From positions 1 through 22,129 of IMG/VR virus record IMGVR_UViG_2526164668_000016: a stretch of DNA of 22,129 nucleotides. The stretch is one strand, 5' to 3'. Shown here piece by piece: positions 3,480 to 6,708 of the stretch. This stretch comes from a virus. Taxonomy: Duplodnaviria; Heunggongvirae; Uroviricota; Caudoviricetes. Each line of letters opens with the position of its first letter. Within the stretch, counting starts at the first letter, position 1. The notes under the pieces are model-generated. The model ran no database searches, was not told the DNA's origin, and saw only the letters and a program-made list of their open reading frames with translations. Both the position numbers and the translations under genes were made by a program.

Positions 3480-3797
3480 TGGGATAATTCTGTACTGAAT
3501 ATTATCAGGGTGCGGTAATGATATGAAAATAAGTATTTCAGTCATCATGGAGTATTTGATTCTGATGATGGGGTTCTGGTTTGTTGTGTGGTTGATTACG
3601 GACTGGTTGCCTCGTATTTGACAGAAAGTTAAATCAGAATGCTTTATCAGGGCTATGTATGAGAGGTACACAAAAAGTCATAGCGGAAGAAAATGTTCTT
3701 TCAGCGGCCATACAGCGTATTGAATGGGTATTTATGATCTTACCCACCAATAGTGGACACAGGACTAAGTGAGTAAACTCTCAACCAGAGGTGACTC

Positions 3798-4097
3798 ATG
3801 ACAAAACCAGTATCAATCAGCAAGAAGCCCCGTAAACAACATACGCCTGAATTTCGTAACGAAGCCCTGAAACTCGCTGAACGCATCGGTGTGGCCGCCG
3901 CAGCCCGTGAACTCAGCCTGTATGAATCCCAGCTTTATGCCTGGCGCAGTAAACAGCAGCAACAAATGAGTTCGTCAGAGCGCGAAAGCGAACTGGCCGC
4001 TGAAAATGTCCGCCTTAAACGACAACTGGCGGAGCAGGCTGAGGAACTGGCCATCCTCCAAAAGGCCGCGACATACTTCGCGAAGCGCCTGAAATGA
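3798..4097 (+). CDS. IS3 transposase OrfA (InsE-like, HTH)
   Basis: 99-aa protein closely matching E. coli IS3 OrfA as recalled (…[42 protein letters not shown]…[15 protein letters not shown]). Confidence 0.9.
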
Positions 4098-4947
4098 AGT
4101 ATGTCTTCATCGAAAATCATCGGGCAGAGTTCAGCATCAAAGCGATGTGTCGTGTACTTCGGGTTGCCCGCAGCGGCTGGTATGTCTGGCTCAGGCGTCG
4201 TCACCAGATGAGCCTGCGCCAACAGTTTCGGCTCACCTGCGATGCCGCTGTCCATAAGGCATTCTTTGAGGCAAAGCAGCGATACGGTGCTCCCCGCCTT
4301 GCTGACGAACTGCCGGAGTTCAATATTAAAACCATTGCCGCCAGCCTGCGTCGTCAGGGGCTGCGGGCGAAAGCCAGCCGGAAGTTCAGCCCGGTCAGCT
4401 ACCGTGCACATGGCCTGCCCGTATTGGAGAATCTGCTGGAGCAGGACTTCAGCGCCAGCGGCCCGAACCAGAAGTGGGCGGGTGACATCACGTACTTGCG
4501 TACCGATGAGGGCTGGTTGTATCTCGCAGTAGTCATCGACCTGTGGTCACGCGCCGTTATTGGCTGGTCGATGTCACCGCGAATGACAGCACAACTGGCC
4601 TGTGATGCACTGCAAATGGCGTTGTGGCGGAGAAGACGCCCGGAAAGCGTCATTGTTCATACGGACCGTGGTGGTCAATACTGTTCAGGGGATTATCAGG
4701 CGCTGCTGAAGCGACACAACCTGCGTGGCAGTATGAGTGCGAAAGGCTACTGTTATACAATGCCTGTGTGGAAAGCTTCTTTCATTCGCTGAAGGTGGAA
4801 TGTATCCACGGGGAACGCTTTAGCAGCCGGGAAATAATGCGGGCAACGGTGTTTAATTATATCGAGTGTGATTACAATCGCTGGCGTCGTCACAGTGCCT
4901 GTGGCGGTCTCAGCCCGGAACAATTTGAAAACCATAATCTCGCTTAG
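4094..4947 (+). pseudogene. IS3 transposase OrfB (InsF-like, DDE), frameshifted
   Basis: Frame 4094-4792 matches IS3 OrfB up to …MSAKG then ends; the conserved continuation (…[20 protein letters not shown]…[17 protein letters not shown]) is in the other frame (4624-4947). Consistent with a 1-bp deletion near 4745-4750. Confidence 0.75.
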
Positions 4948-5837
4948 GGCCGTGTCCACATTACGTGGGTAGGATCAGTAGTCTCGAGTGCATTGGTAAG
5001 ACGAATAATTATTTTTTTTCACATCATTTATATTTTTCTTTCCCAATTGCTTCACAAACTCATAAGCTGCAAGGATTAATTCTCCATTGTTATTCACTTG
5101 TTTTTATAAATTAATTCTCATAAACAGACTATACCTCATTGATTATCTATGCTATGTTGGCGTATTTACAGTAACGAAGGTAAACCAATATTAGTTACGC
5201 TAAGTTTTTTACATTTTACGTTAACCTTGAATTTTTTGCGATTTATGTCTGAGTGGATCTGTTATATTTCAGGAGCGTAGGATATGAAAATGTTTTGCGG
5301 AAAAGTTCTCTCCATATACTGTTTTTCCATTGCATGTAAATATTAAAAGCAGGGATGCACAAAAAAACAATAAGGAGAACATTTGTTATTGTATGATAAA
5401 GGATATGCAGCAATTAATGATATTTCGATGGCATCTTAACTTTCTTTTATTTGGTTAACGTCGTTTGGGTGAAGGTTAAGGTGCCATCTTGATATCATTT
5501 ATGAATAATACTAAGTACATTTATAATGTTTGAATGCGATAAAATGGATGGCAAGAAGGTTGTTCTGATAATATCATCTACGTTAATAATATTAACGTCA
5601 TTTTGTTCAAGTTTACAACTATTAAAGGTCCTGACCCATTATTAACCGAGTTTTTACCTTTATATCCTGCAAATAAAGGCTACAAGGTACTGGTAATGAC
5701 TCCAACTTATTGATAGTGTTTTATGTTCAGATAATGCCCGATGACTTTGTCATGCAGCTCCACCGATTTTGTAGAACGACAGCGACTTCCGTCCCACGCC
5801 GTGCCACGGTGCTGCCTCACGATTCAGGTTATGCCGC

Positions 5838-6113
5838 TCAATTCGCTGCGTATATCGCTTGCTGATTACGTGCAGCTTTCCCTTCCAGGCGGGATTCATA
5901 CAGCGGCCAGCCATCCGTCATCCATATCACCACGTCAAAGGGTGACAGCAGGCTCATAAGACGCCCCAGCGTCGCCATAGTGCCTTCACCGAATACGTGC
6001 GCAACAACCGTCTTCCGGAGACTGTCATACGCGTAAAACAGCCAGCGCTGGCGCGATTTAGCCCCGACATAGACCCCACTGTTCGTCCATTTCCGCGCAG
6101 ACGATGACGTCAC
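5838..6113 (-). pseudogene. insB: IS1 InsB, disrupted (frameshifts at both ends of the conserved core)
   Basis: Core [61 protein letters not shown] matches InsB, but N- and C-terminal flanks diverge and the ORF is 91 aa instead of about 167 aa. Confidence 0.7.
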
Positions 6114-6134
6114 TGCCCGGCTGTATGCGCGAGG

Positions 6135-6410
6135 TTACCGACTGCGGCCTGAGTTTTTTAAGTGACGTAAAATCGTGTTGAGGCCAACGCCCATAATGCG
6201 GGCAGTTGCCCGGCATCCAACGCCATTCATGGCCATATCAATGATTTTCTGGTGCGTACCGGGTTGAGAAGCGGTGTAAGTGAACTGCAGTTGCCATGTT
6301 TTACGGCAGTGAGAGCAGAGATAGCGCTGATGTCCGGCGGTGCTTTTGCCGTTACGCACCACCCCGTCAGTAGCTGAACAGGAGGGACAGCTGATAGAAA
6401 CAGAAGCCAC
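6135..6410 (-). CDS. insA: IS1 InsA
   Basis: 91-aa protein [43 protein letters not shown]… is the canonical IS1 InsA. Confidence 0.9.
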
Positions 6411-6438
6411 TGGAGCACCTCAAAAACACCATCATACA

Positions 6439-6708
6439 CTAAATCAGTAAGTTGGCAGCATCACCCAATTTTTTACCGTTATTCACGTTACAGTAAATTT
6501 CGGCAAGTTCGCGTGATAACATTATTTCTCCGTTATGTTTATCTATAGCAATGTGATCGGGATTATCACGAATAAACTTCTTTATCATTGGCATTGCCAT
6601 AAACTCTTCTGGCGTATAGATGAGTGTATGGCGGCGAACGTGTTTTATCACAGGTGTTTTATGTTTTGATTCAACCTGAAATACATTAATTTTATTCTGA
6701 TTTGACAT
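6439..6708 (-). CDS. hypothetical protein, last gene of leftward operon; C-terminus replaced by IS1 sequence (truncated)
   Basis: ORF begins 2 nt after the upstream stop; the last 9 codons and the stop lie inside the IS1 terminal repeat (6439-6465), so the native C-terminus is lost. No recognisable family. Confidence 0.45.
   Translation of the reverse strand: MSNQNKINVFQVESKHKTPVIKHVRRHTLIYTPEEFMAMPMIKKFIRDNPDHIAIDKHNGEIMLSRELAEIYCNVNNGKKLGDAANLLI

Follow-up and report, generated by a model that had tools for sequence, protein, structure and literature searches.

An Escherichia coli draft contig that links an F4-like fimbrial plasmid module to a lambdoid prophage across IS1, a possible assembly chimera

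The stretch of DNA analysed here (22,129 nucleotides, called the window below) is the entire draft contig AIGV01000036.1 of Escherichia coli DEC11A. It is composed of two halves that meet at an insertion sequence, and our comparisons indicate that it links an IS1 copy from a plasmid to an IS1 copy from a prophage. We put the probability that the contig is an assembly chimera, in which two copies of IS1 were merged in silico, at about one in two; the artificial nature of the link across IS1 is something that we infer. Positions 1-6465 are 99.85% identical to plasmid pOkiPb01716_1 and positions 6466-21358 are 99.92% identical to the yecE prophage in the OkiPb01716 chromosome, with the change from plasmid-like to prophage-like sequence falling exactly at the end of IS1. 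The two halves are separate replicons in OkiPb01716, the closest complete strain, and the flanks of the joint lie on different replicons in every complete reference. By these alignments the origin of each half is established. As a whole the window is a case of routine IS-driven mosaicism or of assembly chimerism, and is not a demonstrated deletion scar.

Comparison with complete plasmids indicates that the fae locus, ISEc16, the spacer and IS1 are a single plasmid module, of which the window holds the right-hand end. The features of this half are as follows.

1-3479, plus strand: tail of an F4/K88-like (fae) fimbrial operon, 99.85% identical to pOkiPb01716_1
194-685: DUF5462 gene (Pfam, from precomputed gene calls)
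907-1770, about 1954-2685 and 2715-3479: three Fimbrial_K88 subunit genes (Pfam, from precomputed gene calls)
3735-4977, plus strand: ISEc16 (IS3 family), 1243 bp, with 39-nt inverted repeats
3798-4097, plus strand: orfA of ISEc16
4094-4792, plus strand: shortened orfB of ISEc16, the rest of the frame running to 4947
4978-5691, no strand: AT-rich spacer, 714 bp, GC 30-32%
5692-6465, minus strand: IS1A-type IS1, 774 bp instead of 768, with 23-nt inverted repeats
6135-6410, minus strand: intact insA of IS1
6153-6159, minus strand: intact A6C slip site of IS1

The initial annotation described two insertion sequences bracketing an AT-rich spacer, and this arrangement is borne out by the coordinates above. 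Across 16 complete E. coli genomes the spacer has 22 occurrences, each of them on a plasmid and none on a chromosome. In uninterrupted plasmids it runs on for about 0.5 kb to the plasmid tpx (thiol peroxidase) gene, and in pLD39-1 and p2RM10740 its sequence is continuous on both sides. It is a piece of intergenic plasmid DNA from the far end of the region upstream of tpx. A hidden gene or RNA in the spacer was considered and rejected, as positions 4978-5691 contain no ORF of at least 60 aa (the longest is a TTG ORF of 56 aa) and gave no match in an Rfam search. A composite transposon consists of a cargo between two copies of one IS, the whole being flanked by a single target duplication. This structure was also rejected, because the two elements belong to different families and the outer flanks, TTA... 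and CAATTTTTT, are unrelated. The protein of the last Fimbrial_K88 subunit gene (2715-3479) is listed in 215 blocks of the collection.

The first of the two elements, initially called IS3, does belong to the IS3 family; it is ISEc16, which is only about 82-88% identical to IS3 proper. Its terminal inverted repeats lie at 3735-3773 and 4939-4977, its ends are TG...CA, and from end to end it has 99.9% identity with annotated copies of ISEc16. There is a single difference from an intact copy of 1244 bp (L020), the loss of one G between 4756 and 4757. This loss shifts the frame of orfB within a motif of 11 residues, before the catalytic E, and with orfB truncated the element lacks an intact orfA-orfB (OrfAB) DDE transposase. 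The same broken element is present in six complete plasmid copies (C3, C7, pOkiPb01716_1, L010, L013 and L015) and in four draft contigs, and on these comparisons the frameshift is genuine. No 3-bp target duplication is found at ISEc16; the element stands between TTA and GTA, where the intact copy has CTC on either side, and to the right of the site the sequence continues differently in other plasmids. ISEc16 sits on an older recombination joint that was already fixed within the plasmid family. Since this joint is identical in free plasmids, it predates the event that joined the module to the prophage.

The other half of the window is the early and regulatory region of a prophage, whose nearest phage records are Stx phages. 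The initial annotation was right that IS1 cuts a prophage gene, and the cut creates a fusion ORF.

6439-6708, minus strand: fusion ORF of 89 aa, made up of 81 of the 93 codons of a prophage gene followed by 8 codons and a stop from the IS1 IRL
6466-22129, plus strand: early and regulatory region of a yecE-type lambdoid prophage, Stx-phage-like without stx, 99.92% identical to the OkiPb01716 prophage (6466-21358)
9103-9849, minus strand: cI-like repressor
20271-22121: nanS-p-like SASA esterase
Elsewhere in the prophage: cro-like gene, Rha, replication genes, DnaB helicase, DUF968, antiterminator Q, tRNAs, TerB, and the sRNAs STnc100 and AgvB (supported by Pfam and Rfam)

The last 12 codons of the 93-codon gene (function unassigned) are removed by IS1. 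The gene is intact in OkiPb01716 (L001, 11962-12243) and in eight of the nine other loci fetched, and encodes 90 aa in the ninth. The prophage of the OkiPb01716 chromosome has an int/xis arm of only 2.4 kb to the left of the breakpoint, and the fimbrial block of that strain is on a plasmid. Besides the end of the cut gene, the arm comprises DUF5406, DUF4222, a 44-aa ORF, xis and int. The earlier suggestion that recombination genes had been lost with the arm is not supported, as it contains no recombination module; nor does it follow that the arm was removed from the genome, as the absence of int, xis and attL applies only to the 22-kb contig. The DUF5406 protein is present in 1406 blocks, and among the matches listed there are only long contigs with an uninterrupted prophage.

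The joint between the IS1 IRL and the prophage is, on the evidence of other assemblies, real. The exact 89-aa fusion protein is found in three other draft assemblies. They come from the same clone, with 0 substitutions over about 10 kb, and carry the same joint, and all three stop 29-117 nt inside IS1, as is expected because short reads cannot thread a multi-copy repeat. They give no linkage to the plasmid side, so that the link across IS1 comes from the DEC11A contig alone. Logan run SRR254187 carries the joint as well. It is absent from 5,426 complete E. coli genomes and from PLSDB, where no plasmid has the prophage side.

The IS1 copy that carries this link is bounded by 23-nt inverted repeats (IRR 5692-5714, IRL 6443-6465). 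Its insB' is broken by six 1-bp insertions (at 5772, 5797, 5807, 5820, 5885 and 6073) and also has one substitution at 5984; there are no deletions, and all of these changes lie within 300 bp. Among about 75,000 IS1 places in the 5,426 complete genomes the best match is 99.1-99.2% identical, and none shares the insertion pattern or even a subset of it. The ORFs and products that depend on the insertions are confined to this contig among all gene calls of an index of 153 billion positions. At five of the six sites the extra base is one that a sequencer with a TACG flow cycle would try between its two neighbours; the sixth insertion lengthens a homopolymer. This fit is suggestive, with a chance expectation of about 1 in 16 and the actual platform unconfirmed. 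The six insertions are probably consensus errors. Collapse of IS1A with a 90%-divergent IS1 variant, with the SNP bases set in columns of their own, was rejected as their source, as the two types do not differ at any of the six sites. Whether IS1 is truly degenerate is a separate question from the join, and we consider it unlikely that the insertions are real mutations in a dead element. They do stand in the deposited sequence, and insB' as written is clearly non-functional, but so many insertions with no deletions and a single substitution are unlike natural pseudogene decay, and the private pattern, the confined products and the apparent fit to flow order also speak against it. Of the initial claim that both transposase genes are frame-disrupted, the part concerning ISEc16 orfB stands, whereas the disruptions of IS1 insB' are unique to this contig and probably not biological.

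IS1 target duplications are normally 9 bp and occasionally 8 bp long. No 9-bp duplication flanks this copy, the flanks being CAAGGTACT and CAATTTTTT, and the initial observation that neither element has a target duplication is therefore correct. Both elements are located at joints of unrelated DNA, and IS-mediated rearrangement accounts for the missing duplications. If the contig is a chimera, its one IS1 would stand for two copies, one from the plasmid and one from the prophage, with the left flank taken from one and the right flank from the other; the duplication would be lacking because the flanks belong to different copies. The merging would have happened when an old draft assembly was threaded through IS1, a multi-copy repeat of 768 bp, and the six insertions would be consensus errors of a stretch with poor support. 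In the prophage one would then expect a simple insertion of IS1 between 9-bp duplicates, still adjoined by the int/xis arm, and the fimbrial module would sit on a plasmid.

A chimera is favoured by the fact that the only stretch that carries the linkage is the one that is anomalous in sequence. Outside IS1 there are only 5 indels across 21 kb of contig, all intergenic; one of these, the A5 at 9083, is private to the contig when compared with four relatives, and fits occasional consensus errors in the DEC11A draft. Three considerations weaken the case. Assemblers normally need some support, such as mate pairs, to cross repeats, so the link may be real. The insertions lie 80-380 nt from the left boundary of IS1, where reads anchored in the spacer should cover them whether or not the join is real, so the errors point to low local quality and not specifically to a false join. 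In addition, the plasmids share the left flank of this IS1 but differ in what follows on its right (T6SS tssA, traS and others), which makes it a biologically active recombination point and counts against a chimera.

The closest competitor to a chimera, which we rate somewhat lower, is that the join is physical and that the fimbrial plasmid, or a part of it, integrated into the chromosomal prophage through IS1. IS1 forms cointegrates, and plasmid integration via insertion sequences is well documented. By one route the IS1 of the plasmid would have transposed replicatively into the 93-codon gene and formed a cointegrate; by the other it would have recombined homologously with an IS1 copy that the gene already carried, the mechanism of Hfr formation. 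With integration, the int/xis arm would not have been deleted; one would expect it a full plasmid length away, on the far side of a second IS1, with CAATTTTTT (9 bp) repeated at the reciprocal joint. The sequence predicted for that joint (left arm, CAATTTTTT, IS1 IRR) has no match in metagenome contigs or species-representative genomes. Split in two, the prophage would be unable to excise as a unit fit for packaging. Integration agrees with the presence of the join in the contig itself. To the left of IS1 the plasmid flank is preserved exactly and to the right there is a new AT-rich target, as would be expected after an intermolecular IS1 event. The same IS1 has at least three other right-hand partners in plasmids. 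Against integration, the spacer is chromosomal in none of the 16 complete genomes that carry it, and the joint is in no complete genome or plasmid. The linkage comes from a single old draft contig in which the interior of IS1 is visibly of poor quality, and the three sibling assemblies lack it. Only tentatively do we entertain the specific event, namely that in the DEC11A clone an F4-like fimbrial plasmid (with a type VI secretion cluster in relatives) integrated via IS1 into a yecE Stx-phage-like prophage.

The initial annotation proposed instead that IS-mediated deletions within a single replicon took away the left arm of the prophage (int, xis, attL) together with the DNA between it and the fimbrial locus, leaving a locked-in remnant fused to that locus and two decayed elements; this is very improbable, even though target duplications are missing at both elements, int, xis and attL are off the contig, IS1-adjacent deletions are known to keep one flank and replace the other, as is seen among the plasmids, and the OkiPb01716 copy of the prophage has been independently truncated on its right side by ISEc23, an IS66-family element. 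Such deletions need the module and the prophage to have been on one molecule beforehand, and the module is plasmid-only in all complete genomes; the missing arm is just 2.4 kb long and has no recombination genes, the decay of IS1 is probably artefactual, and the ISEc16 joint is older than the event. Because the halves lie on different replicons, deletion within a replicon cannot alone make the joint, which needs an event between replicons (IS1 cointegration or IS1-IS1 recombination) or an assembly error. What survives of the proposal is that both insertion sequences lie at joints, that IS-mediated rearrangement accounts for the missing target duplications, and that the prophage in this contig lacks int, xis and attL.

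The biological weight of the contig is small, as it is routine in E. coli for IS1 and IS3-family elements to mark the joints of plasmid, prophage and chromosomal DNA. It serves more as a caution: an apparent locked-in prophage beside a fimbrial locus in a draft contig can be two merged IS1 copies, and what looks like IS decay can be an error of the consensus. Contigs of this kind are unfit for inferring synteny or prophage competence. If integration did take place, the prophage would be split from its integrase and plasmid virulence genes would be placed on the chromosome; the join would then add one more case to the IS-mediated integrations of virulence plasmids, with modest interest as to how stably this lineage keeps its fimbrial genes.

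IS1 cointegrates, IS1-adjacent deletions and Hfr-type integrations resemble the window in that the IS keeps one of its flanks and has unrelated DNA in place of the other. There, too, an IS lies at the joint of two types of replicon, with no target duplication around the single copy; the window differs in being a candidate only, with the reciprocal joint lying outside its 22 kb. The window resembles IS-truncated cryptic lambdoid prophages of E. coli in that an IS adjoins the lambdoid early region and the contig has neither int nor xis, but here the DNA beyond the IS is of plasmid and not chromosomal type. The ISEc16 copy shares with the reference its 39-nt inverted repeats, orfA/orfB layout and HTH_Tnp_1 and rve domains, and differs in being 1 bp shorter and in lacking a 3-bp target duplication. 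The IS1 copy matches IS1A in its 23-nt inverted repeats, insA, A6C programmed-frameshift site and 99.1% identity; it differs in length (774 against 768 bp), in the six private insertions in insB' and in the absence of a 9-bp duplication, whereas a neighbouring IS1 of p2RM10740, in the same spacer, has a clean one. The fimbrial operon is divergent from the porcine ETEC K88 locus; it is F4-like and comes from bovine and human strains. It shares with the F4 (K88) fae plasmids the faeD-, faeE- and faeH-like genes and Fimbrial_K88 subunits, the RepB-type plasmids and the IS flanks.

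The window is the whole of contig AIGV01000036.1 from the draft assembly of E. coli DEC11A, and its two sides match different replicons of OkiPb01716. Positions 1-6465 are 99.85% identical to the plasmid pOkiPb01716_1, on which an F4/K88-like fae fimbrial operon is followed by ISEc16, a spacer, IS1 and then a type VI secretion cluster. Positions 6466-21358 are 99.92% identical to the OkiPb01716 chromosome, where a lambdoid prophage integrated at yecE is present without IS1. The elements at the join are listed here; their terminal inverted repeats were located and the boundaries coincide exactly with those in the initial annotation.

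3735-4977, IS3-family element ISEc16, 39-nt terminal inverted repeats
4978-5691, spacer between ISEc16 and IS1, 714 bp, 30-32% GC
5692-6465, IS1, 23-nt inverted repeats

A complete-looking type VI secretion cluster (tssA, PAAR, VgrG, tssG, tssF, tssC, tssB) follows IS1 in several fae plasmids (15160-24569 of L002, the pOkiPb01716_1 locus; also plasmid loci L010 and L015).

IS1 was said to cut a prophage gene and to lack matching flanking repeats, and both observations hold. In the OkiPb01716 prophage the breakpoint falls 39 nt short of the end of an uninterrupted 93-codon gene, to which no function is assigned. Nine other loci were fetched; eight share the uninterrupted order, and in the ninth this gene is a 90-aa version. 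Only 2.4 kb of that prophage lies left of the breakpoint, encoding DUF5406, DUF4222, a 44-aa ORF, xis and int.

Among 5,426 complete E. coli genomes, 16 carry the spacer, at 22 places, every one on plasmids. In pLD39-1 and ETEC plasmids it continues unbroken for a further ~0.5 kb up to the plasmid tpx gene, and in p2RM10740 a different IS1 has inserted into it, cleanly duplicating 9 bp (window 5608-5616). The spacer is simply an intergenic fragment. It contains no ORF of at least 60 aa and no Rfam match, including at an imperfect 32-nt inverted repeat (5413-5502, 81% complementary, 26-nt loop). Plasmid copies of the IS1 found in the window always have the spacer on their left, with variable DNA on their right (tssA, traS or other DNA), and in no case is the tpx side or a 9-bp duplication recovered. 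The constant left and variable right flanks indicate that this IS1 has repeatedly mediated rearrangements.

The first element takes the name ISEc16 from RefSeq annotation of identical copies, its identity to IS3 proper being just ~82-88%. Strain N18-04097 has an intact copy of 1244 bp, from which the window copy differs by one base, a G lost between 4756 and 4757 within a conserved 11-residue stretch of orfB; the frame stops at 4792, short of the catalytic glutamate. The 1243-bp copy is found at 100% identity in three complete bovine plasmids and four draft contigs, and also in three further complete plasmid copies, so the disruption of orfB is not a sequencing error. It is a true inactivating frameshift, separate from the programmed orfA/orfB one. 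The absence of a target duplication is likewise borne out, the flanks being TTA/GTA in the window, against a 3-bp duplication (CTC/CTC) in N18-04097. In both pLD39-1 and p2RM10740, the sequence that borders ISEc16 on its right extends leftwards into unrelated plasmid DNA (...ACTTGTAGTT, then GTAGTCTCGAG), and the right flank is different again in other fae plasmids. The recombination joint at which ISEc16 lies is therefore old and had already become fixed in the plasmid family when the event of interest took place. In plasmid loci L012 and L014, where ISEc16 again follows the fae operon, the element retains the missing G and has a right flank also unlike the window (AGTAATGG...); it is destroyed by a ~0.8 kb internal deletion in L012 and by an IS21-family insertion (window-equivalent 4708) in L014.

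At the corresponding position pOkiPb01716_1 carries an intact IS1A. Relative to it, IS1 in the window shows one substitution (5984) and has gained a single base at each of six sites (5772 T, 5797 C, 5807 C, 5820 C, 5885 C, 6073 A). insB' switches between frames; insA is intact, as is the A6C slip site (6153-6159). The best matches to this copy across ~75,000 IS1 places in complete genomes reach 99.1-99.2% identity, and in an index covering 153 billion gene positions the short ORFs created solely by the insertions were found on no other contig. A 300-bp stretch with six insertions, a single substitution and not one deletion is unlike natural decay. A flow-cycle sequencer may have introduced the inserted bases as false-positive flows: in a TACG cycle, five of the six are the base tested between both neighbours, and the sixth lengthens a homopolymer (chance expectation for the pattern ~1 in 16). 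The six insertions are not explained by collapse with a 90%-divergent IS1 type. The disruption of insB proposed earlier is present in the deposited sequence, but the degeneracy of this IS1 is probably artefactual.

The 21 kb outside IS1 contain five indels, none of them within a gene. One is the homopolymer at 9083, A5 here but A6 in OkiPb01716 and in three assemblies of the same clone; it is private to this contig and probably a consensus error, pointing to occasional indel errors in the draft. At 18005, also intergenic, a G tract reads G8 in the window and G10 in OkiPb01716.

The right-hand joint, between the IS1 IRL and the prophage, is real: three further drafts of this clone, free of substitutions over ~10 kb, contain identical DNA and encode exactly the same 89-aa fusion protein. 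These contigs end 29-117 nt within IS1 and are therefore uninformative on the plasmid side. Since the joint is also absent from the 5,426 complete E. coli genomes and from PLSDB plasmids, the link between prophage and plasmid module rests on one contig, in which it passes through a multi-copy repeat; no stretch of the contig is of poorer quality than the inside of this repeat. The reciprocal joint, predicted between the prophage left arm (int/xis side) and the other end of IS1, was not found in metagenome contigs or species-representative genomes.

Three explanations share the premise that IS1 lacks a target duplication because its flanks stem from different IS1 insertions. We favour, at a probability of about 0.5, an in-silico merge of IS1 copies that would have produced a chimeric contig, because the module is plasmid-only, no other assembly corroborates the link and errors cluster locally. 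Somewhat less probable is that the plasmid has physically integrated, through either IS1 cointegration or recombination between IS1 copies; the contig does exist as deposited and this IS1 is evidently active, and the prophage left arm would then have been displaced rather than deleted. The IS-mediated intrachromosomal deletion of the left arm put forward in the initial annotation is very unlikely, as it presupposes a module already on the chromosome, for which there is no evidence, the spacer being confined to plasmids in complete genomes.

The prophage side contains the following RNA genes.

11085-11161, isrK (Rfam), within the ash/Rha-type gene region
11186-11273, C4 antisense RNA (Rfam), within the ash/Rha-type gene region
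18849-18924, tRNA Met-CAT (ARAGORN)
19021-19097, tRNA Arg-TCT (ARAGORN)
19867-20060, + strand, STnc100 sRNA (Rfam)
20062-20123, - strand, AgvB anti-GcvB sRNA (Rfam)

ARAGORN finds two tRNAs in this region of the window; three are annotated in OkiPb01716. STnc100 and AgvB are adjacent, just upstream of a nanS-p-like esterase gene, and a 1-bp A insertion relative to OkiPb01716 (20068) lies inside the AgvB match. In OkiPb01716, the closest complete genome (L001, the chromosomal locus, 26896-29728), the same prophage is cut on the right by ISEc23 (IS66-family) inside the nanS-p-like gene, with a partial trehalase gene after it; this is an independent IS-associated truncation in a sister strain.

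All the components are of known kinds, namely ISEc16, IS1, an F4-like fimbrial plasmid module and a lambdoid prophage. Insertion sequences without target duplications at joints of unrelated DNA are a textbook mark of IS-mediated rearrangement, and integration of a virulence plasmid into a prophage is a known phenomenon. The nearest phage records of the prophage side (window 16594-22121) are Stx phages, but TerB and DUF3927 genes, and no stx, occupy the slot that runs from antiterminator Q with the tRNAs to the nanS-p-like esterase; the prophage is an stx-less relative of the Stx phages that it resembles.
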